Origin: an uncultured Candidatus Saccharibacteria bacterium
GTDB lineage: Bacteria > Patescibacteriota > Minisyncoccia > UBA6257 > WO2-44-18
Assembly (NCBI GenBank): GCA_964545345.1
Contig: CAZJFE010000002.1
Span: 1-46,171 of the forward strand
Length of the DNA stretch: 46,171 nucleotides
Direction: 5' to 3'
How positions within the stretch are numbered: the first letter of the stretch is position 1; every line of letters begins with the position of its first letter. Both the position numbers and the translations under genes were made by a program. Under the pieces are notes generated by a model. The model had not been told where the DNA came from. It saw only the letters and a list, made by a program, of their open reading frames with translations, and made no database searches. Of this stretch, positions 5,797 to 45,764 are shown piece by piece.

Positions 5797-6362
5797 AAAC
5801 GGCGAAGGCCGTTTTTTTAGATCGCGATGGCACCCTCATTAAGCAGGTGGAGTTAATGCACAAAATAGCGGACTTGGAAGTTCTGCCGGGAGTCCCAGAA
5901 GCAGTTGCCCAATTAAACCAGTTGGGTTTCTTGACGGTCATTGTTACCAACCAACCGGTAGTGGCTCGCGGCGTTGCGACGCCGGGGGATATTGAAAAAG
6001 TAAATACCGAATTACTTAAACGTCTCGCGGTTGGCGGTGGGAAAGTTGATGCGGTTTATTTTTGCCCACACCACCCCGAGGCAACCCTTGAGCAATATCG
6101 TGTTGTTTGCGATTGCCGAAAGCCGGAGCCGGGAATGATTTTGAATGGGATCAAGGAATTCAATATTGATCCAAGGCAGAGCTTTATGATTGGGGATGCG
6201 ATTATTGATATAGTGGCTGGCCAAAAAGCGGGTTTAAAAACTATTTTGGTGAAAAGCGGCCCTGGGCATTCCGGCTTGGACAAAAAATATCCCGATGTTC
6301 ATCCGGATTGGGAGGCGGCCGATCTTAGCGAAGCGGTTGAAATTATTAGTCGTCAGTCGTAA
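5760..6362 (+). CDS. gmhB: D,D-heptose 1,7-bisphosphate phosphatase (HAD-IIIA)
   Basis: VFLDRDGTLI motif I, the CPHHP...CDCRKPEPGM zinc/HAD-IIIA signature and a GDAIIDI motif. It overlaps the gmhA 3' end by 37 nt. Confidence 0.8.
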   Translation: MGNSAKTNQPRLETAKAVFLDRDGTLIKQVELMHKIADLEVLPGVPEAVAQLNQLGFLTVIVTNQPVVARGVATPGDIEKVNTELLKRLAVGGGKVDAVYFCPHHPEATLEQYRVVCDCRKPEPGMILNGIKEFNIDPRQSFMIGDAIIDIVAGQKAGLKTILVKSGPGHSGLDKKYPDVHPDWEAADLSEAVEIISRQS

Positions 6363-6382
6363 GTTGGTAGTTATAAGTTATG
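6348..6382 (+). repeat. Tandem heptanucleotide repeat, 5 units (AGTCGTC AGTCGTA AGTTGGT AGTTATA AGTTATG) spanning the gmhB stop and the next start codon
   Basis: Period-7 register read directly from the sequence. The TAA stop (6360-6362) and the ATG (6380-6382) both lie inside units. Confidence 0.8.
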
Positions 6383-9605: not shown

Positions 9606-9953
9606 ATGAAAAGCATCGGAATAGACATTGTTGAAGTAAAAAGATTTCGAAATGTCCCATACAAAAAGGGCAGCGTTTTTTATTCCAAAATCTTCAGCGA
9701 TGCCGAAATCAAATATTGTTTATCTAAAGATGACCCCTACCCGCACTTCGCCGCGCGCTTCGCCGCGAAAGAAGCGGTTTTGAAGTGTTTGAAGAGCACA
9801 ATCTATAAAATAAAGGAGGTGGAGATTCTTAACGATAAGAAGGGCGTTCCGTTTGTCCGACTTCACGGTCGTAAGTCGTTAGTCGTTAGTCGTTTCTTGA
9901 TTTCGCTATCGCACACTAAAGATCAGGCCGCCGCCATCGCATTCTTACAATGA
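9606..9953 (+). CDS. acpS: Holo-[acyl-carrier-protein] synthase (4'-phosphopantetheinyl transferase)
   Basis: IGIDIVEVKRF, FAARFAAKEAVLKC and ISLSHT motifs. Length 115 aa. Confidence 0.85.
   Translation: MKSIGIDIVEVKRFRNVPYKKGSVFYSKIFSDAEIKYCLSKDDPYPHFAARFAAKEAVLKCLKSTIYKIKEVEILNDKKGVPFVRLHGRKSLVVSRFLISLSHTKDQAAAIAFLQ
9867..9894 (+). repeat. Tandem heptanucleotide repeat inside acpS (GGTCGTA AGTCGTT AGTCGTT AGTCGTT)
   Basis: Read directly from the sequence. It encodes RKSLVVSRF. The stop triplets created by the repeat (9872, 9880, 9887) all fall in the two non-coding frames. Confidence 0.8.
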
Positions 9954-12723: not shown

Positions 12724-13896
12724 ATGAGTAAACTATCTAAGCCTAAACGGAAAATTTGCTTCCCAATTATGAGCCGTATCCACTACGCGCGGCAGAAGCA
12801 TTTAATGGGCTTGATCCAAAAAAGTTCCAAGTTGGATCTTCAGCTGGTGGTAGGCGGATCGGTTTTGCTGGATAAGCACGGTGAGCGGTTTTTGCCGGCA
12901 ATGGCGGAAGCCGGTTTTAACGTTAACGAAACTTTATTCAACGTGATTGACGGCGGCAATCATATCGCCATGGCGAAGACCTCCGGCCTCGCCGCCCTGG
13001 AATTTTCCAACTCACTTTATAAATTAAATCCCGATATTGTTTTGATTCGCGGCGACCGCTTTGAACAATTAGCGTTGGCGATGGTAGCGGCCTATTTAAA
13101 TAAAACCATTGCCCACATTGAAGGCGGTGATCTGACCGGTACGATTGATGAAAGTGTTCGGCACGCTATTACAAAACTCGCGCATGTTCATTTTGTGACC
13201 AACGAAGACGCCCGCAAGAGGGTAATTCAAATGGGTGAGAATCCCCGCATGGTTTTCAATGTCGGATCGCCCGATGTGGAGTTCGCGGCTCTAGTAGATA
13301 AGAAAAACGATGGCCGAGCCGTTAATAAAAGTGGTATGGGTTATGAAATTGATGTGAATAAGCAATTTCTGATGGTGATGCAGCACCCGGTGACGACCGA
13401 AAAAAATAACCGGAAGAATTTTGAAGAAACTTTGAAGGCGGTGGACGCGTTGAATCTGCCGACTGTTTGGTTTTGGCCGAACAGCGATGCCGGTACTAAC
13501 GAAATTTCTAAAGCGATCCGTGTTTATCGCGAGCATGGGAAGTTGAAGAATAAAAAAATTCGTTTTGTTACTGATCTTTTGCCGGATGATTTTATCGCGT
13601 TGTTACGCAGAGCGAGCGTGATGATCGGCAATTCCTCCGCGGGGATCAAAGAGTCTTCTTATTTAGGAGTACCGGTAGTGAATGTCGGCACACGTCAGGC
13701 CAACCGTTTGCGATCGGAGAACGTTGCTGATGCAGGGTACAAAGCTGATGTGATCAAGAAAGCCATTCAGAAGCAGTTAACTCATGGAGCGTATAAAAAA
13801 TCCGATCTTTACTACAAGGCCGGCTCCAGCCGGAAAATTGTTGAGGTTCTATCAAAGATAAAACTTAATCCGCAGAAAAAGTTTTACACCATTTAA
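12724..13896 (+). CDS. neuC: UDP-N-acetylglucosamine 2-epimerase (hydrolysing), NeuC/LegG-type
   Basis: RGDRFEQLALAMVAAYLNKTIAHIEGGDLTGTIDESVRHAITKLAHVHF is the NeuC signature region. ATG 12724 is preferred over the adjacent TTG at 12721. Confidence 0.85.
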   Translation: MSKLSKPKRKICFPIMSRIHYARQKHLMGLIQKSSKLDLQLVVGGSVLLDKHGERFLPAMAEAGFNVNETLFNVIDGGNHIAMAKTSGLAALEFSNSLYKLNPDIVLIRGDRFEQLALAMVAAYLNKTIAHIEGGDLTGTIDESVRHAITKLAHVHFVTNEDARKRVIQMGENPRMVFNVGSPDVEFAALVDKKNDGRAVNKSGMGYEIDVNKQFLMVMQHPVTTEKNNRKNFEETLKAVDALNLPTVWFWPNSDAGTNEISKAIRVYREHGKLKNKKIRFVTDLLPDDFIALLRRASVMIGNSSAGIKESSYLGVPVVNVGTRQANRLRSENVADAGYKADVIKKAIQKQLTHGAYKKSDLYYKAGSSRKIVEVLSKIKLNPQKKFYTI

Positions 13897-14621
13897 TGGC
13901 AAAAATTTTGGGAGTTATCACCGCGCGGGGTGGCTCTAAGGGAATCCCGGGTAAAAACATTAAGCCGCTGTTAGGTAAGCCGTTAATCGCTTACACGATT
14001 GAAGCCGCCAAAGCATCAAGCGTGGTTGATCGTTTGATTCTTTCTACCGACGATCTGGAAATTGCTGAAGTGGCGAAGCAATACGGTTGTGAGGTCCCAT
14101 TTATTCGTCCAGCTGACATCGCCGACGATAAAGCCGCGCATTTACCGGTATTGCAACACGCGATTAAAGCTTTGAAAGAAAAGGACGGTTATGAGCCGGA
14201 CTATGTTTTGTTGCTCCAACCGACCTCTCCGGCCCGGCAATCCTTTCATATCAAGGAAGCCGTGGAGTTGATAGAGAAAAGCGGCGCGGATTCCGTTTTG
14301 AGCGTGGCGGAAATCCCGGAGAATTTTCATTACAAGAAAGCGATGGCCGTTAATGAAGATGGAGTTTTGCGGTTAGTTAAGGATTCCGGGCCAATTTATA
14401 ACCGAGTGGCCCGTCGCCAAGATTTGGAAAAAAACTACTGGAGCGTTGGTTCTATTTATCTTTTCAAAACTAGTTTGTTGTTTGATCAGGTAAAGCCGAA
14501 TTTTTATGGCGAAAAAACTATGCCCTACGTGATAGACGCGAAGTATGTCGTGGATATTAATGTTCCCGCGGATTGGGAAGTGGCCGAAAAAGTGATCAAA
14601 CGACTAACGACTAACGACTAA
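13896..14621 (+). CDS. neuA: Acylneuraminate (nonulosonate) cytidylyltransferase
   Basis: ITARGGSKGIPGKNIKPLLGKPLIAYTIEAA is the CMP-NulO synthetase N-terminal signature. The start overlaps the neuC stop. Confidence 0.85.
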   Translation: MAKILGVITARGGSKGIPGKNIKPLLGKPLIAYTIEAAKASSVVDRLILSTDDLEIAEVAKQYGCEVPFIRPADIADDKAAHLPVLQHAIKALKEKDGYEPDYVLLLQPTSPARQSFHIKEAVELIEKSGADSVLSVAEIPENFHYKKAMAVNEDGVLRLVKDSGPIYNRVARRQDLEKNYWSVGSIYLFKTSLLFDQVKPNFYGEKTMPYVIDAKYVVDINVPADWEVAEKVIKRLTTND

Positions 14622-14626
14622 CGACT
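14599..14626 (+). repeat. Perfect tandem heptanucleotide repeat (AACGACT)x4, containing the neuA stop and abutting the next ATG
   Basis: Four exact units. It is the reverse complement of the AGTCGTT repeat found at the other loci. TAA recurs every 7 nt, so stops occur in all three frames. The ATG at 14627 follows immediately. Confidence 0.9.
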
Positions 14627-15562
14627 ATGAAAATTTTAATTACCGAGCCGCAGGATTATTCCAAGAAAGCTGTTGAGATGTATAAATCTCACGGCGATGT
14701 GGTTTTAGGTGGTGAGCCGGACGCGGAGACGGGGGTGATAGCGATTCGGTTAAAACACAAGATTGATAAGAGCTGGATGGATAAAATGCCGAATTTAAAA
14801 ATTATTGCTTCACCAACTACCGGATTGAATCACATAGATATCGCCGAGGCGGAGAAGCGGGGCATTAAATTGATCACTTTACGTGGACATACCGACTTTT
14901 TGGATAAGATCACTTCTACCGCCGAAGAAACTTTGGGATTGATACTGGCTCTAGTTCGCAAGATTCCGCAAGCGCACGAGCATGTTAAGGGCGGAGGATG
15001 GAATCGCGACGCTTTCCGAGGTTATCAGTTGGCCGGTCAAACACTCGGCATATTAGGATTGGGTCGGCTTGGTCGGATGGTGGCGCGTTATGCAAAATCA
15101 ATGGACATGAAAGTAGTCGCCGCTGATCCCGGTATTACCGGAGAGGAAATGAGCAAGCAAGGAGTAACAAAAGTTAGCCACGAAGAATTATTCAAAAATT
15201 CCGACATTCTTTCTTTGCACGTGATGTTGACCGATAATACTAAGAATTTAGTGAAAGAGGGAGATTTGAAGTTAATGAAGCCGTCGGCTTTGTTAGTGAA
15301 TACGGCTCGGGCGGAAATTATGGAAAAGGGAGCTTTAGAAAAAGCATTGAGAGAAAAATGGATCGCCGGGGCGGCGGTAGATGTGATGTGGGACGAAGAG
15401 GGTAGTGGCGCGCATTTGGCCAAGAGTGAACTCTGGGATATGGCAAAAAGCGGTCAGCATAATTTGATTATCGTTCCGCATATCGGGGGCGCCACTTATG
15501 ACGCCATGCAAATCACCGAAGAATTTATCGCCGATTTAGTGAAAAAAGAATTAACAAAGTAA
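14627..15562 (+). CDS. D-isomer-specific 2-hydroxyacid dehydrogenase, NAD-binding
   Basis: GILGLGRLGRMVARY dinucleotide motif and the catalytic-His context VPHIGGAT. Length 311 aa. Confidence 0.8.
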   Translation: MKILITEPQDYSKKAVEMYKSHGDVVLGGEPDAETGVIAIRLKHKIDKSWMDKMPNLKIIASPTTGLNHIDIAEAEKRGIKLITLRGHTDFLDKITSTAEETLGLILALVRKIPQAHEHVKGGGWNRDAFRGYQLAGQTLGILGLGRLGRMVARYAKSMDMKVVAADPGITGEEMSKQGVTKVSHEELFKNSDILSLHVMLTDNTKNLVKEGDLKLMKPSALLVNTARAEIMEKGALEKALREKWIAGAAVDVMWDEEGSGAHLAKSELWDMAKSGQHNLIIVPHIGGATYDAMQITEEFIADLVKKELTK

Positions 15563-16056: not shown

Positions 16057-17049
16057 GTGGGAAAGGTTGTGATCGGTGAGAAGTGGATGAAGTGGACGTT
16101 GTTGGAGGCCGGAACAAGAACCGGATCTAAGCTGTTGCAGAAAGTGATCGGACTCGCCGCGCCTACTTTTGCCTTTAACGTTGTTGCTTCGTTTGTCGTT
16201 GGTTTGATGCAAACATTAGCCGGTTTCCTGGCAGTGAAGAAGCAGGGTAAGTCGTTTTTCCCGAACCGTCAGCAGGTCTGGGGATCGATCGCCTTTGGAA
16301 CACTGGCGACTTTTTCAACGATTGTGCCTTTCACGATTTTTTATCTTGGCGGCGATATTGGCGTAAACACCTTTATCATCACTCTTTCTATTGTTCCCGG
16401 AGCGTTCATTGACCGAATCTTTTTCGGTCACAAGCTAACCGGTCGTCAGTGGGCGGGAGTGGGAATGGCGGTAATAGCTGGCTACTCTGTTCTCGGGTGG
16501 CCGACTGCTCAGGGATTTTTTTCCCTGCCGTTGTGGGTCTGGCTGTCGTTCGCGGTTATGATGGCAAATGCGGTTAATCAAGGAATCACTCAGAAAGTTA
16601 AAGATGTTGATCCGATGGTGAAGAACTTCTGGGGCGGGTTTACCAATGTGGCGCTTTCGCTGGGAGTGCTCGCGTTTATTGGCTCACTTGGCGCCCTGTT
16701 TGATTTTTCGCCCCAGCTCCGCAAGCTCTGGCTAGCGGCCCCGTTGGTTGGTGGAATCGTGATCGCCATGTGGAGTTTTAACCTCCTGAGTTACAAGGGC
16801 GGCGCCAGTATCGCGCTTAAGAAACTAGTGATGAACGGCACTTATCTTACCGCGGTGATGGTGCTTAGCGTCCTGATCCCTTATTTCAAAGAATCAATGA
16901 CTTGGGGTAAGGCGATTGGTATTCCGCTCTACTTTGTCGCCTTTGCTTTGATGGATAACGGCACCTGGAATTATGTTTCCAGCTGGTTTTGTAAGGAAAC
17001 GGTCAAGTCCGGATCCGACGCCCCCGTGAAGGTCCCGACAAAAGTTTAA
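16057..17049 (+). CDS. Polytopic inner-membrane protein (DMT/transporter-like)
   Basis: 330 aa with about 9-10 hydrophobic segments. The GTG start lies 7 nt after GGAGG. Confidence 0.6.
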   Translation: MGKVVIGEKWMKWTLLEAGTRTGSKLLQKVIGLAAPTFAFNVVASFVVGLMQTLAGFLAVKKQGKSFFPNRQQVWGSIAFGTLATFSTIVPFTIFYLGGDIGVNTFIITLSIVPGAFIDRIFFGHKLTGRQWAGVGMAVIAGYSVLGWPTAQGFFSLPLWVWLSFAVMMANAVNQGITQKVKDVDPMVKNFWGGFTNVALSLGVLAFIGSLGALFDFSPQLRKLWLAAPLVGGIVIAMWSFNLLSYKGGASIALKKLVMNGTYLTAVMVLSVLIPYFKESMTWGKAIGIPLYFVAFALMDNGTWNYVSSWFCKETVKSGSDAPVKVPTKV

Positions 17050-17054
17050 TCTTC

Positions 17055-17085
17055 GGCCCCCGCGTAAAACGCGGGGGCCTTTTTG
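17055..17085 (+). terminator. Rho-independent terminator
   Basis: GGCCCCCGCG TAAAA CGCGGGGGCC hairpin followed by TTTTT. Confidence 0.9.
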
Positions 17086-17086
17086 T

Positions 17087-17092
17087 TAAACT
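17087..17092 (+). promoter_or_regulatory. -10-like box TAAACT placed 6 nt before ATG 17099 (leaderless layout)
   Basis: No Shine-Dalgarno sequence. The block TTTGTTAAACTTTAwTTATGTTC is duplicated at 18011-18033. Confidence 0.45.
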
Positions 17093-17098
17093 TTATTT

Positions 17099-18007
17099 AT
17101 GTTCATCTGGTTTGTTTTGGCTTTGGGTTCGGCGATTTCTAATTCCGCTACTCAAGTTATTCAAAAGTGGGCAATCAGCGCCGGGCGTCTTTCCAAAATC
17201 TCTATAACGTTTTTGTCTTCGCTGACCGCTTCTTTAATATTGTTTGCGCTTTCCGGACTTGTAATTGGCGTTCCGGTGATCCAGCCGGGATTTTGGCTGG
17301 CCATCTTCATTACCAGCATATTAAACGCGATTGCTTTCCCGATAATGTTGAAGGCGTATTCGCTGGGAGAATTTTCCACGGTTTATTCAATGATTCTGCT
17401 GACGCCGGTATTTCTGGTCTTTACTTCGTTCTTTTTCCTGGGAGAAGTTCCGACTTTACCGGGACTGGTTGGCGTAGTCCTGACGGTGGTCGGTTTATCG
17501 GTAGTGACTTTGAGCGGCCACAGGCATACGCAGGTACCGAATTTCAAAAAAGGGAATTGGTTGGGAATATTAGTGGCTTTGATTTGGTCGGTGACGGTTA
17601 ATTTTGATAAATTGTCCGCCCGGTATACCGATGCTTTCTTTGCTCCCGCTGTGAGTTTCGGTATTCTGGCGTTTTGCTTCGCATCTTATTTACTCATTCG
17701 GCATCGGAGTTTATTGGTGCGCGCGCCGAGACTCCCGGATATAGAAGAGCCGATGCCGCCAGCCGGTTCTATTAAGGCGGGGTTGTTAATCGTGTTACTA
17801 CTCGGTTTGTCGCTGGCGTTGGGGAACATTTTGCATAATTCCGCGTTATTGCACGGCCCGGCTTCTTACACGATCGCCATCAAGCGTACCGGAGTCTTGT
17901 TCGGCGTGATTTGGGGCTGGCTGTTCTTCAAAGAAAAAAATATTGCCGGGAAAGCTTTGGGCGCCGCGATTGCTATCGGTGGAGTAGTTTTGATCCTGTG
18001 GTCTTAG
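17099..18007 (+). CDS. EamA/DMT-family transporter
   Basis: 302 aa with 10 predicted TM segments. The C-terminal motif GVIWGWLFFKEK...GAAIAIGGVVLILWS is shared with the next gene. Confidence 0.75.
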   Translation: MFIWFVLALGSAISNSATQVIQKWAISAGRLSKISITFLSSLTASLILFALSGLVIGVPVIQPGFWLAIFITSILNAIAFPIMLKAYSLGEFSTVYSMILLTPVFLVFTSFFFLGEVPTLPGLVGVVLTVVGLSVVTLSGHRHTQVPNFKKGNWLGILVALIWSVTVNFDKLSARYTDAFFAPAVSFGILAFCFASYLLIRHRSLLVRAPRLPDIEEPMPPAGSIKAGLLIVLLLGLSLALGNILHNSALLHGPASYTIAIKRTGVLFGVIWGWLFFKEKNIAGKALGAAIAIGGVVLILWS

Positions 18008-18015
18008 GTTTTTGT

Positions 18016-18021
18016 TAAACT
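18016..18021 (+). promoter_or_regulatory. -10-like box TAAACT placed 6 nt before ATG 18028 (leaderless layout)
   Basis: Same block as at 17087. Confidence 0.4.
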
Positions 18022-18027
18022 TTAATT

Positions 18028-18945
18028 ATGTTCTCTTGGCTTTTTTATTCACTCGGTTCGGCTGTCACCACCTCTCTCACTCAAGTTTTTTCTAAAGAGG
18101 CGATTTTAGACCGCCGATATTCTAATGTGGCGATCAAGTTCGTCTCGGCTTTGGTGGCTTCCGTGCTCCTATTTGTAGTTGCCTACCTTTATGGATTTCC
18201 AAATTTGGATCCTCGTTTTTGGCCGGCGGTGATTATTACCGGAGCAATTAACAATGTTTCCGCGTTGATGTATTTGCGCGCTTACCAAGTCGGAGAATTT
18301 TCATCTGTTTATTCAATGAGTCTGATGACGCCGATCTTTCTTTTATTGACTTCTTTTGTTCTATTGGGAGAGAAGCCAACTCTGCTGGGTGCCGTCGGAG
18401 TGTTTTTGACGATTATCGGTTTGTGGGTGGCATTTAGGAAAAATACGGCGCAGAAAAACGTGCAAGATTTTACTAAGGGCAATTTGCTTGGCTTGTCGGT
18501 CGCCCTACTCTCTTCCTTGAGTGTCAATTTTGATAAAGCCGCCGCGTTGTATTCCAACCGGATTTTTGCTCCCGCGGCCACGCTGGCTTTCATGGCAATC
18601 AGTTACGGATTGTATTTGTTGGTTAGGCGTCAACGTTTCTTTGTTGCCGAATCCCTGCCTACCGGCAGGCAGGGCCTACAGGATGAATTGGCGCGAAAGG
18701 CGCCCTGGTGGTTTGCCGGCATGCCGCTTTTGCTACTAATGGGAGTTTTGAGCGCCGGCGGTACGGTGCTTTATAACTCTGCTCTGCTGGGTGGCTTCGC
18801 CTCTTACACGATCGCCGTGAAGCGGGTCGGCGTTTTGCTTGGTGTTATCTGGGGTTGGTTATTTTTTAAGGAAAAAGATTTGGGTAAAAAACTGCTCGGC
18901 GCCGCTATTGCCATTGCCGGCGTGGTTGCTATATTGTGGTCATAA
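18028..18945 (+). CDS. EamA/DMT-family transporter, tandem paralog
   Basis: About half of the residues are identical by eye to the 17099-18007 product, over the full length. Confidence 0.75.
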   Translation: MFSWLFYSLGSAVTTSLTQVFSKEAILDRRYSNVAIKFVSALVASVLLFVVAYLYGFPNLDPRFWPAVIITGAINNVSALMYLRAYQVGEFSSVYSMSLMTPIFLLLTSFVLLGEKPTLLGAVGVFLTIIGLWVAFRKNTAQKNVQDFTKGNLLGLSVALLSSLSVNFDKAAALYSNRIFAPAATLAFMAISYGLYLLVRRQRFFVAESLPTGRQGLQDELARKAPWWFAGMPLLLLMGVLSAGGTVLYNSALLGGFASYTIAVKRVGVLLGVIWGWLFFKEKDLGKKLLGAAIAIAGVVAILWS

Positions 18946-21289: not shown

Positions 21290-21324
21290 TCCGTAATTCA
21301 TAATTCGTTATTCATCATTCAATG
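21290..21324 (+). repeat. Degenerate heptanucleotide repeat (TCCGTAA TTCATAA TTCGTTA TTCATCA TTCAATG) ending in the start codon
   Basis: Period-7 register read directly. The last unit contains the ATG at 21322. The unit TTCGTTA differs by 1 nt from GTCGTTA. Confidence 0.6.
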
Positions 21325-32589: not shown

Positions 32590-32738
32590 TTGCGGGCTGT
32601 AAGCAAAGCTTTCGGCCCATCACTCGGAGAAAGCGCACAAGTAAGCTTGTCCGATTCTCCTTCGTTCGGGCTGTAAGCAGAGCTTGCAGCCCATCATTCG
32701 GAAGAAGCGTACAAGCGAGCTAGTACGATCTTCCTTCA
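32590..32738 (+). repeat. Two tandem 74-75-nt units, each folding into two hairpins, sharing the 5' sequence TTCGGGCTGTA with the tRNA that follows
   Basis: Unit A spans 32590-32664 and unit B 32665-32738, about 80 percent identical. The stem of hairpin 2 changes GGAGAA/TTCTCC to GGAAGA/TCTTCC, which is compensatory. Confidence 0.7.
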
Positions 32739-32740
32739 TT

Positions 32741-32919
32741 CGGGCTGTAGTATATCGGCAGTACACACGCCCCGCCCCCACACCAAAATTTCGGAGAGTA
32801 GTATATCGGCAGTACACACGCTTCGGGTGCGTGAAGGCCGGGTTCGATTCCCGGCTCTCCGACGGTGTGGTGTGGGGGTGAAGGTGCGTGAGGGCTGGGT
32901 TCGATTCCCAGCAGCCCGA
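32741..32919 (+). tRNA. Interrupted tRNA-Pro-like gene (outer): intact acceptor, D, anticodon-stem and T arms, but 115 nt in place of the 7-nt anticodon loop
   Basis: The 5' part is CGGGCTG TA GTAT ATCGGCA GTAC A CACGC (32741-32770). The 3' part is GCGTG AGGG CTGGG TTCGATT CCCAG CAGCCCG A (32886-32919). C1-G72 and A73 match the Pro signature. No identifiable NGG loop. Confidence 0.6.
32792..32862 (+). tRNA. tRNA-Pro (anticodon CGG), 71 nt, no encoded CCA
   Basis: Manual cloverleaf: CGGAGAG/CTCTCCG acceptor, D arm GTAT-ATCGGCA-GTAC, anticodon arm CACGC-TTCGGGT-GCGTG, 4-nt variable loop, T arm CCGGG-TTCGATT-CCCGG, and A73. Confidence 0.85.
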
Positions 32920-35871: not shown

Positions 35872-35912
35872 CTGATGCATATTTAAACATTTAAATATTG
35901 AAATATTTTTTT

Positions 35913-36854
35913 ATGTACGATCTTGTAATTATCGGCGGCGGCCCGGGCGGGATAGCGGCCGGCGTGTACGCCGCTCGGAAGAAAATAAAATCTGCCATTG
36001 TGGCGGGGGATTTCGGAGGCGCTTCAAAAGTATCGGCTGACATCCAGAATTGGATCGGAACGAAATCAATTTCCGGTTATGACTGGTCCAAGACGTTGGA
36101 GGGGCACCTGCGGGCTCAACAGGGAATTGACGTGATTCATCCGGATTTGGTTGAGAAGGTGGAAAAAATAGATGCCGGTTTTTCCATTAAGACCAAAAGC
36201 GGGAAGTTATTGGAATCAAAGACTATTCTGGTAACTACCGGTAGCGCGCGGAAAAAGTTAAATATTCCCGGAGAAAAAGAATTTGACGGCAAAGGAGTAG
36301 TTTATTGTTCAACTTGCGACGCTCCGATTTTCGCCGGGAAAACGGTGGCGGTAGTGGGCGGAGGAAATGCCGGACTAGAGGCGGTTTTGGATGCCGATCC
36401 GTACGCGACCAAAATTTATATTTTGGAATTTTCCGATCAATTGAAGGGAGACGCCGTGACGCAGGAGAAATTGCGAGCCAATCCGAAAGTGGAAATCATT
36501 ACCGGCGCTAAAACGTTGGAAATCATCGGAGATAAATTCGTCAGCGGTTTGAAGTATGAAGATATAAAGAGCGGCGAGGTAAAGGAATTAAAGTTGGAGG
36601 GGGTTTTCGTTGAGATTGGAGCTTATCCGAATGTCGGCTTTGTAAAAGAATTGGTTAAGACGAACGATTTCGGAGAAATTGTAGTGGATCATAAAACCCA
36701 AGCCACTTCTATGCCGGGAATTTGGGCGGCCGGCGACGCCTCAGATGTTTTGTACAAACAAAACAATATTTCTTCGGGTGACGCGATTAAGGCGGTTTTA
36801 AACATTGTTGACCATCTCAACAAAACCGAATCTCAGAGGGAATATTCAAAATAG
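35913..36854 (+). CDS. trxB: Thioredoxin-disulfide reductase
   Basis: MYDLVIIGGGPGGIAAGVYAAR (FAD motif), the redox CSTC motif, VAVVGGGNAGLE (NADPH motif) and GIWAAGDA. ATG 35913 is preferred over TTG 35898. Confidence 0.85.
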   Translation: MYDLVIIGGGPGGIAAGVYAARKKIKSAIVAGDFGGASKVSADIQNWIGTKSISGYDWSKTLEGHLRAQQGIDVIHPDLVEKVEKIDAGFSIKTKSGKLLESKTILVTTGSARKKLNIPGEKEFDGKGVVYCSTCDAPIFAGKTVAVVGGGNAGLEAVLDADPYATKIYILEFSDQLKGDAVTQEKLRANPKVEIITGAKTLEIIGDKFVSGLKYEDIKSGEVKELKLEGVFVEIGAYPNVGFVKELVKTNDFGEIVVDHKTQATSMPGIWAAGDASDVLYKQNNISSGDAIKAVLNIVDHLNKTESQREYSK

Positions 36855-45122: not shown

Positions 45123-45764
45123 ATGCAAGTAATTCCCGGTATAGAAGGAGCGGATGCCGAATCCGTCAAAGAGCAATATGAGAAAGTTAAAGATTTGAAT
45201 CCTGATGGTTGGGTTCATTTAGATATTACCGACGGAAAGTTTACACCGGCGGTGAATTGGGGCTCGCCAGAAGGGCTTAAGTCCTTAGTCCCTAGTCGTA
45301 AGTCGTTAGTCGAGCTACACCTGATGGTGGAGGATGTGGAAAAATCTATAGATAGTTGGTTGAAGACAGGACTGATCAAGCGGGTGATTGTTCACCTAGA
45401 GGCGATGTCTGATCCGGTTTTTGTGATTCAAAAATGTAAGGAATATGAAGTTGAGCCGATGTTAGCAATTAAGCCGGAGACGGAGGTTGAGCGTTTATTC
45501 GCGCACAAAGATGATTTTCGCGCTTTTCAGATCTTGGCGGTTAATCCGGGTTGGTCGGGTCAGAAGTTTAATGAGGATTCTTTGGCAAAAATAGAGTGGA
45601 TTAAGGCCAAAATACCGAATGCTATAATAGAAATAGACGGGGGCGTCAATCCGGAGGTAGCTAGGAAGTGTTACCAGGCCGGAGCAAACGTCTTAATCTC
45701 AACTTCTTATATCCAAAAGAGCCAGAGTCCTCAAGATGCATACAAGGAACTATTCAATGATTGA
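45123..45764 (+). CDS. rpe: Ribulose-phosphate 3-epimerase
   Basis: HLDITDGKFTP, ELHLMV, AVNPGWSGQKF and EIDGGVN motifs. Length 213 aa. Confidence 0.85.
   Translation: MQVIPGIEGADAESVKEQYEKVKDLNPDGWVHLDITDGKFTPAVNWGSPEGLKSLVPSRKSLVELHLMVEDVEKSIDSWLKTGLIKRVIVHLEAMSDPVFVIQKCKEYEVEPMLAIKPETEVERLFAHKDDFRAFQILAVNPGWSGQKFNEDSLAKIEWIKAKIPNAIIEIDGGVNPEVARKCYQAGANVLISTSYIQKSQSPQDAYKELFND
45280..45314 (+). repeat. Tandem heptanucleotide repeat inside rpe (AGTCCTT AGTCCCT AGTCGTA AGTCGTT AGTCGAG)
   Basis: Read directly from the sequence. It encodes KSLVPSRKSLVE. The repeat-generated stop triplets (45286, 45293, 45299, 45307) all avoid the coding frame. Confidence 0.8.

Follow-up and report, generated by a model that had tools for sequence, protein, structure and literature searches.

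What is a run of identical seven-nucleotide units doing between two genes, and what put it there? The question is raised by a 46,171-nt stretch of DNA from an uncultured Candidatus Saccharibacteria bacterium (assembly GCA_964545345.1, contig CAZJFE010000002.1; the whole stretch is called the window below). In it, four perfect copies of AACGACT fill the space between a gene for a NeuA-family cytidylyltransferase and a gene for a D-2-hydroxyacid dehydrogenase. The first part of the question can be answered with high confidence. The array belongs to a heptanucleotide simple sequence repeat family of the same kind as the short tandemly repeated repetitive (STRR) sequences of cyanobacteria and the TAACTGA repeats, here with the unit AACGACT (AGTCGTT on the other strand) and in a genome of the Patescibacteria. 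For the second part we lean, by a little, towards arrays that are maintained by slippage and occasionally copied between sites, and that are tolerated or mildly useful as spacers with a stop in every frame, no start codons and no structure, in a genome with few Shine-Dalgarno (SD) sequences.

The array and its two genes

The initial annotation described a perfect (AACGACT)x4 that holds the neuA stop and is directly followed by an ATG without an SD sequence. The sequence itself, Tandem Repeats Finder (TRF; 4.1 copies, 100% matches) and a motif check, in which no GGAG-like motif was found upstream of ATG 14627, all agree with that description. The features, all on the plus strand, are these:

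13896-14621, plus strand: open reading frame (ORF) of the NeuA-family cytidylyltransferase (Pfam CTP_transf_3 at 1.2e-24)
14599-14626, plus strand: perfect (AACGACT)x4, holding the TAA stop of the upstream gene and ending one base before ATG 14627
14627-15562, plus strand: ORF of the D-2-hydroxyacid dehydrogenase (Pfam 2-Hacid_dh_C at 1.4e-51), beginning right after the array

The array encodes the final seven codons (KRLTTND) of the NeuA-family ORF together with its stop, TAA at 14619-14621, and leaves a spacer of 5 nt before the dehydrogenase ATG. Homologs of the upstream ORF are named acylneuraminate or legionaminate cytidylyltransferases by their sources; the family is that of the NeuA/CMP-nonulosonate synthetases. 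On the downstream side, the start codon and N-terminus of the dehydrogenase are conserved in all eight relatives examined. The array is identical, four units long, in an independent ENA assembly of the strain (L001, the only further assembly found), hence it is not an assembly artefact.

Neither a terminator-like site nor an Rfam family was found at the junction (the only Rfam match in the window is a tRNA-Pro), and the array is therefore internal to an operon. No promoter is involved there. The junction region has a predicted minimum free energy (MFE) of -0.9 kcal/mol (z = +1.44) and folds no better than 190 of 200 shuffles. This weak predicted fold, together with the two negative searches, rules out an intrinsic terminator or a described structured RNA. 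For (AACGACU)6, and likewise for (AAACCCU)6, the predicted MFE is 0. A further candidate was rejected: the unit is not the slippery heptamer of a programmed -1 frameshift, as no rotation of AACGACT fits X XXY YYZ. A putative 6-nt complementarity of AACGACU to the 1494-1499 region of 16S rRNA was judged to be likely chance.

Stops are what the unit does provide. It had been pointed out that three or more units stop translation in every frame, and this holds on both strands, with TAA in one sense and TAG in the other. In addition, the unit contains no ATG, GTG or TTG on either strand. The same combination is found in 110 of 1170 heptamer classes (9.4%), AAACCCT among them. Alleles with different numbers of units were simulated, with the following outcomes:

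One unit: an ATGA overlap and a tail ...KRL*, which recreates the arrangement of the nearest relative
Two units: NeuA runs in frame into the dehydrogenase (a fusion)
Three units: NeuA gains 16 residues and overlaps the next gene by 50 nt
Four or more units: an unchanged 241-residue protein and a spacer of 5, 12, 19... nt (7 nt more for each unit beyond four)

Since fewer units make the genes overlap, fuse them or extend the first, four units are the smallest expanded state with a clean gene end.

The absence of an SD sequence had been considered noteworthy. However, 36 of the 47 listed starts in the window have no GGAG-like motif within 30 nt, and because most genes of the window do without one, its absence at ATG 14627 is not special. 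As a separate observation on gene starts, many of them are preceded, at a distance of only 6-10 nt from the ATG, by a TAnAAT-like -10 box, for example 7286, 17099, 18028, 38909 (minus strand), 38974 and 45123. This suggests that leaderless or very short-leader mRNAs may be widespread in the organism.

The C-terminal tails of NeuA homologs bear on the junction as well. A tail of four residues is the commonest class (39 of 113); just 19 of these 39 fit a heptamer back-translation model, and the result is for that reason suggestive only. In one homolog with 71% identity (P0028), the tail consists of ATSHQPS x2.6 (ATSHQPSATSHQPSATSH). Its period of 7 residues, or 21 nt, suggests that a longer, stop-free heptamer array may be translated through in that relative.

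Relatives, other sites and other phyla

Is the array a peculiarity of one genome? The syntenic locus was recovered from eight other assemblies, and the four longest of these (L122, L123, L125 and L334) share 72-82% DNA identity with the window. After the conserved C-terminus of NeuA, the junctions read as follows:

Window: A (AACGACT)x4 ATG
L122: (AACGACT)x3 AACGAAT ATG (AACGACT x3.9)
L339: AGCGACT AGCGACT AGTGACT AGTAAAA CTT ATG
L341: AGCGACT AGTGACT AGCGACT AGTAAAA ACT ATG
L123/L124: (AAACCCT)x4 ATTCTT ATG
L340: (AATTAGG)x4 AACTTCT ATG
L125/L126: ACTAGGC ACTCGGC ACTAGAA GCT ATG (an ACTAGGC-like tract)
L334, the nearest relative: a single AAAATCT, then an ATGA stop/start overlap; no array

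A comparison of orthologous junctions, as the initial annotation had proposed, hence finds about three to four heptamer units in seven of eight species, with unit sequences that differ among the genomes. Every version retains a stop on the sense strand (CTAA, CTAG or TTAG). Since the relatives carry different units at the same place, the junction repeatedly hosts about four 7-nt units whose sequence is replaced over time. Among more distant homologs, the junction is a plain ATGA overlap in L255 and L258, carries degenerate heptamers in L259 and L262 and has an octamer in L257.

The unit is also found elsewhere. Four of the five period-7 tracts in the 46-kb window share AACGACT/AGTCGTT, which stands on the opposite strand at 6348-6361, 9867-9894 and 45294-45314. 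The other tracts and their hosts are:

6348-6379, plus strand: degenerate array AGTCGTC AGTCGTA AGTTGGT AGTTATA AGTT, containing the stop of a HAD-phosphatase gene (TAA 6360-6362) and ending at ATG 6380 of a nucleotidyltransferase gene
9606-9953, plus strand: ORF of holo-ACP synthase (AcpS; Pfam ACPS at 1.8e-17), host of the next array
9867-9894, plus strand: intragenic array GGTCGTA + (AGTCGTT)x3 in AcpS, encoding GRKSLVVSR, with AAG at the position of the in-frame TAG
21292-21321, plus strand: period-7 tract of a different unit (CGTAATT CATAATT CGTTATT CATCATT CA), with a -10-like box before it and, after it, ATG 21322 of a UDP-glucose dehydrogenase-like gene
45280-45314, plus strand: degenerate intragenic array AGTCCTT AGTCCCT AGTCGTA AGTCGTT AGTCGAG in ribulose-phosphate 3-epimerase (Rpe; ORF 45123-45764), encoding KSLVPSRKSLVE

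For the family and SIGNIFICANCE, a two-unit probe with at most two mismatches gives 9 matches in the window against 0.19 expected, a number that none of 100 shuffles reaches; with at most one mismatch there are 6 matches against 0.00 expected, and none of 100 shuffles gives any. The repeat family is real and not a product of chance.

The claims of the initial annotation about these tracts fared unequally. AGTCGTT does recur at 6348, 9867 and 45280, in the first and last case as a degenerate tract (6348-6379 and 45280-45314). It is likewise correct that a start codon directly follows three of the five tracts (6380, 14627 and 21322). The tract placed at 21290, on the other hand, is no 1-nt variant TTCGTTA of the family: a single unit resembles TTCGTTA, but the units differ from one another and the AGTCGTT probe finds no match, hence we treat 21292-21321 as a separate unit family. 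It is absent from the four relatives checked, in which the upstream regions are shorter. As for a dispersed family that builds gene junctions, the dispersal and the single unit are confirmed, whereas the building of junctions finds no support as the defining role of the family: two of its four window members lie within the AcpS and Rpe ORFs, and relatives carry further intragenic tracts.

Where, then, do the arrays sit? Of the four window arrays, a small sample, two are intergenic, one in forward and one in reverse orientation, and the other two lie reversed within genes. At two junctions the array is the entire stop-to-start spacer; within proteins, members of the family are found at surface loops or C-terminal tails. 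The AcpS array replaces the turn between the last two strands and adds four residues. The Rpe array spans the end of helix 2 and the loop preceding strand 3, a segment whose length and sequence vary greatly among 21 homologs; in the AlphaFold model its 10-residue block has a predicted local distance difference test score of 82, against a mean of 92.4, and is one of the two least confident blocks. The family occupies only positions that tolerate arrays. In the intragenic arrays the one in-frame stop per 21 nt is mutated. In the window, all three places where the TAG of an AGTCGTT array would be in frame have AAG, and in a relative's AAACCCT unit TAA has become TAT.

Gain and loss of arrays is patchy among relatives. 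The AcpS array is present, at the same codons, in the window, L334 and L339 and absent from L122, L123 and L125, where the loop is four residues shorter. The array at the HAD junction is present in the window and L125 and absent from L123 and L334, where the genes abut or overlap.

Arrays elsewhere in a genome appear to use that genome's own junction unit, as would be expected of a genome-specific family. In the window, the AcpS, Rpe and HAD-junction arrays all carry AGTCGTT. The AcpS array of L339, (AGTCGCT)x3, is the exact reverse complement of the junction unit AGCGACT of the same genome. In the Hainich genome an AAACCCT tract, 30 kb from the (AAACCCT)x4 junction on the same contig, replaces a loop of a SpoU methyltransferase, its in-frame TAA changed to TAT; relatives carry ordinary sequence there. 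L340 has a second AATTAGG-type tract before another start codon. The L122/L336 genome combines AACGACT at the junction with (AGTCGTT)x6 across the Rpe stop and the transketolase start, and has two AACGACT units within another ORF. We permuted genome labels over 21 arrays in 9 genomes (11-46 kb per genome, dominant units assigned heuristically) and found 8 of 22 within-genome pairs identical, p = 0.00015. Between the three genomes with distinct units, each of the 27 pairs differs by at least 2 mismatches. In 704 kb of related DNA, mostly candidate phyla radiation (CPR) loci, the heptamer is the commonest unit among those of 5-12 nt: perfect arrays of at least three units number 8 at period 7, 4 at period 8, 2 at period 5, 1 at period 6 and none at periods 9-12.

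In a collection of species-representative genomes that reaches beyond the clade, at least 120 stretches contain (AACGACT)x3, a count made for AACGACT alone. The statements on cellular genomes in this and the next paragraph concern the matches listed. Among these, hosts include Cyanobacteria, Acidobacteriota, Gallionella, Gemmatimonadota, Omnitrophota, Bacteroidota, Patescibacteria and others. In genomes of Moorena, Richelia, Pleurocapsales and Xenococcaceae the arrays stand beside AATGACC- and AATGACT-type units, and in general they often abut the related units AACGACC, AATGACT, AACTACC and AACAACT. At two loci (L014 and L039) TAACTGA arrays lie in the same stretch as AACGACT arrays. In viral contigs three tandem AACGACT units have 9 matches, scrambles of equal composition 6, 1 and 4, and TAACTGA 107; with 9 against 1-6, AACGACT is in no clear excess there, and we do not suggest that bacteria in general favour the unit.

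At 120 of the listed loci (L002-L121), the median distance to coding sequence is 15-20 nt on the 3' side of the AACGACT strand and 82-100 nt on its 5' side (Mann-Whitney U test, p = 1e-9 to 1e-14, a result that strand-calling filters do not change). The perfect block occupies the 3' end of the array on that strand, and a degenerate period-7 tail of about 60-100 nt is found on the 5' side only; this one-sided tail largely explains the polarity. Gaps between convergent genes hold about three times more arrays than those between divergent genes (30 against 11). Gene calls in these other phyla are ORF-based. A first ORF-based analysis had given a preference for gene strand (array before a start, stop inside an array). 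As shadow ORFs can confuse strand calls in GC-rich genomes, we set it aside in favour of the strand-independent result.

Several other features of the locus and of its relatives were seen in passing. The window has a G+C content of 46.4%, and its closest homologs carry the source names Patescibacteria, Parcubacteria or Harrisonbacteria. It holds a nonulosonic-acid/polysaccharide cluster (NeuB, UDP-GlcNAc 2-epimerase, Wzy_C, a flippase, a sugar transferase and the NeuA-like protein) together with housekeeping genes for the CCA-adding enzyme, thioredoxin reductase and Rpe. Within the glycan cluster, 16057-18945 encodes three consecutive EamA-family transporter paralogs, of which relatives have one or two. 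Octamers occur too. An AT-rich period-8 tract at 35872-35913 (ATATTTAA ACATTTAA ATATTGAA ATATTTTT; TRF 35879-35908, 3.8 copies) fills most of the gap from the stop of a glutaredoxin-like small ORF to the likely ATG (35914) of thioredoxin reductase. Other octamer arrays are those of the L257 NeuA junction and of the Rpe loop of L337, where (ACTCATCA)x3 encodes LINSSTHQL.

The Rpe region of relatives has its own curiosities. In L338 (about 1780-1810) a perfect GC-rich palindrome (CCCTGCCTGCCGGCAGGCAGGG) lies in frame inside the heptamer-derived loop and encodes LPAGRQG. A near-identical palindrome is intergenic in another CPR contig, L259, downstream of a NeuA homolog; the pair looks like a small dispersed palindromic element capable of landing in ORFs. 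In L336 (GCA_030646995.1, 8563-9910), Rpe is directly preceded by bAvd and an RVT_1 reverse transcriptase, genes whose pairing is the hallmark of a diversity-generating retroelement. Finally, a 74-bp unit is repeated 2.1 times at 32593-32790 of the window (TRF score 216), with a hairpin in each copy (GGGCTGTAAGCA..TGCAGCCC). It is followed by a partial duplicate of the 5' half of tRNA-Pro (gggctgtagtatatcggcagtacacacgc), directly upstream of the real tRNA-Pro (32792-32863). Repeats and duplicate may be remnants of integration events at the tRNA.

Comparison with described heptamer families

Heptanucleotide families have been known since 1990 (STRR, TAACTGA and others); to our knowledge, what generates or maintains them is known to nobody. 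The canonical STRR units are CCCCAGT, TTGGTCA and CAACAGT; AACGACT is not known to be one of them. The host here is no (heterocystous) cyanobacterium, and cyanobacterial arrays are often much longer. Because the present genome is small and compact, an array in the window is either a whole intergenic spacer or lies inside an ORF. Nevertheless, the comparison with STRR drawn in the initial annotation is apt: these, too, are heptamer families, mostly intergenic and with species-specific units (PMC4679880, PMC4692102).

The stop/start placement had not been recognised from any described system, but the same placement has been published for TAACTGA in marine Beggiatoaceae (MacGregor 2015, PMC4679880). 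That paper reports 169 TAACTGA sets in one Beggiatoaceae genome, and the repeat also in some Cyanobacteria and Bacteroidetes. Most sets are forward and just upstream of start codons, the commonest class ending 1 nt upstream; 13 overlap the upstream stop, few have an SD sequence, and a minority lie inside ORFs, oriented so that they can be translated. Repeats of related heptamers are rare. As to the function, which is given as unknown, a post-transcriptional regulator is proposed. The likeness to our array is considerable. Both consist of tandem 7-nt units in short sets of 2-6 copies; one favoured unit per genome is reported for TAACTGA and may hold in our clade as well; in forward orientation both stop every frame, and no SD sequence stands between repeat and start. 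The window array, read as TAACGAC, also ends 1 nt before its ATG (14627) and overlaps the upstream stop. On the other hand, TAACGAC differs from TAACTGA at three of seven positions and its host belongs to the Patescibacteria. Unlike TAACTGA, the window unit has stops on both strands, and copies in ORFs therefore need a point change. Most TAACTGA sets are intergenic and forward, whereas only one of the four window arrays is forward before a start.

Other heptamers offer partial parallels. Mrazek et al. 2007, as summarised in PMC4679880 and PMC4692102, found heptanucleotides to be the commonest long simple sequence repeats and suggested polymerase slippage; in their sense (head-to-tail units of 5-11 nt, longer than chance) our array is such a repeat. 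Rehm et al. 2015 (PMC4692102) described GGGAATC/GGGGAYT heptamers in Xanthomonas and Nostoc. Between the same genes of two Xanthomonas species these vary widely in length and sequence, which parallels our panel of junctions. They are G-rich, quadruplex-forming and without stop codons, in contrast to AACGACT, which is predicted to be unstructured. Heptamers overlapping start codons are described in a Nostoc preprint (10.1101/2022.06.06.494920). A literature search for heptamer repeats in Patescibacteria found nothing.

The heptamer class is thus already known through STRR and TAACTGA; the unit and the phylum are new. The panel of orthologous junctions in which the unit is replaced may also be new, no such comparison being found in the sections of PMC4679880 consulted. 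The same may be said of the sharing of a unit across non-orthologous sites of a genome, new intragenic tracts included, and of the one-sided decay of arrays.

Possible origins and roles of the arrays

Several suggestions can be made regarding how such arrays arise and why they stay. The one we slightly favour combines slippage, some copying between sites and weak usefulness as a spacer. Slipped-strand mispairing of 7-nt units would create arrays and keep them internally uniform. Ectopic templating, by gene conversion or template switching, would copy or homogenise them between sites. At junctions, arrays might be retained because they end translation in any frame, and they would leave a leader free of start codons and of structure for ribosome reinitiation where SD sequences are mostly absent. 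We regard the arrays as tolerated or mildly useful spacer DNA rather than as a switch.

A number of points weigh against this suggestion. The two assemblies of the strain do not differ in copy number, as slippage might have made them do. The sequences compared all come from metagenome assemblies, and the permutation test of unit sharing has a small sample. Slippage alone cannot explain that dispersed arrays of one genome share a unit, nor how the unit reaches new sites, of which the SpoU loop of the Hainich genome, array-free in relatives, is one. The ectopic-conversion step is itself weak, since arrays of 21-28 nt seem, in our judgement, short for efficient homologous recombination. Lastly, that about four units are kept at the junction across genomes 72-82% identical could reflect positive selection for some function.

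If there is such a function, the arrays might be sequence-specific cis-elements. A protein or RNA encoded by the genome and acting in trans would bind the 7-nt motif, in RNA or DNA, and control SD-independent initiation or coupling. Ring proteins such as HutP read (UAG-N4)x3. In such a system each genome would have its own unit because unit and factor co-evolve, and this agrees both with a genome-specific unit at dispersed sites and with the persistence of about four units in seven of eight species while their sequence turns over. Similar ideas have been put forward for TAACTGA (PMC4679880) and for the Nostoc heptamers (10.1101/2022.06.06.494920). The perfect block lying tight against the neighbouring gene at the 120 listed loci (medians of 15-20 against 82-100 nt) would fit as well, but this polarity in other phyla is mostly due to the degenerate period-7 tail. 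Moreover, the arrays occur in both orientations relative to transcription and therefore present no single RNA motif; several are inside ORFs, where a regulatory role is unlikely; and the nearest relative, L334, manages without an array at the junction. No candidate factor has been identified. We consider a cis-element possible, although unlikely.

Another suggestion is that the arrays are footprints of a tiny mobile element. In such a dedicated, sequence-templated dispersal, an enzyme equipped with a template would write tandem heptamers at breaks or gene ends, analogous in logic to the REP (repetitive extragenic palindromic)/RAYT system or to telomerase. This would account for new, lineage-specific tracts that bear the host's own unit where relatives have ordinary sequence, namely AcpS in the lineages of the window, L334 and L339, SpoU in the Hainich genome and the 3' junction of Rpe in L336. 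Tracts that replace resident sequence of similar length, and the polar arrays of the listed loci in other phyla, with perfect units at the 3' side and a degenerate tail of about 60-100 nt at the 5' side, can be read in the same way. Yet a candidate enzyme was not found beside any array, and no target-site signature was seen. At the syntenic position, the window, L335 and L337 all lack the retroelement reverse transcriptase that L336 has beside Rpe, and viral contigs have no particular excess of AACGACT. Recurrent local slippage with rare conversion could also mimic the pattern. Taken together, we think dispersal of this kind improbable.

It had further been proposed that unit-number slippage, which would change C-terminal tails and stop-start spacing, might act as a contingency mechanism in a surface-glycan locus. 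Gain or loss of units would then switch or tune the expression of nonulosonic-acid glycan genes. Phase-variable heptanucleotide repeats do occur in neuO and HMW1A of E. coli K1 and Haemophilus. As at those loci, the tandem unit is not a multiple of three and lies near surface-glycan genes, here a biosynthesis cluster with NeuB, the NeuA-like protein, Wzy_C and a flippase; after contraction to three units NeuA would run on over the next gene, and after contraction to two the genes would be fused. In contrast to those loci, the body of the gene is not frame-shifted. The array lies outside 5' coding regions and promoters, and the copy number is low and conserved: four units, with no polymorphism between the two assemblies, and about three to four in seven of eight species. 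According to the simulation, four or more units leave both proteins unchanged and merely lengthen the spacer. The family also sits in the housekeeping proteins Rpe and AcpS and, in relatives, in SpoU and at the junctions of rpiB and of Rpe/transketolase; it is not bound to glycan genes. Phase variation is thus a very improbable explanation. Chance or an assembly artefact, for which only the general risk of short repeats in metagenome assemblies could be cited, hardly deserves consideration in view of the 100 shuffles without a match, the identical independent assembly and the arrays that seven other genomes, sequenced in different projects, have at this junction.

A broader speculation cuts across these suggestions: each genome of the clade might carry a trans-acting determinant, be it a template, an enzyme or a binding factor, that writes or selects one 7-nt unit. 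We hold this to be rather unlikely. If correct, the heptamers would be a self-propagating "nano-satellite" that invades gene junctions and protein loops, its arrays growing from one end and its unit being replaced genome-wide over evolutionary time. STRR, TAACTGA and other heptamer families would then share a generating or reading machinery that awaits discovery.

Whatever the answer is, gene callers and annotators of CPR genomes should expect arrays that make up C-terminal tails, loop replacements and stop/start junctions. The clade amounts to a compact natural experiment, with small genomes, many sequenced relatives and one junction that holds AACGACT, AGCGACT, AAACCCT, AATTAGG or nothing. 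That a genome's own unit appears at unrelated sites, even inside enzymes, turns the vague question of heptamer function into testable ones: whether a gene co-varies with the unit, whether arrays are copied between sites, and whether the sequence of the unit matters for translation of the downstream gene in an organism with few SD sequences.

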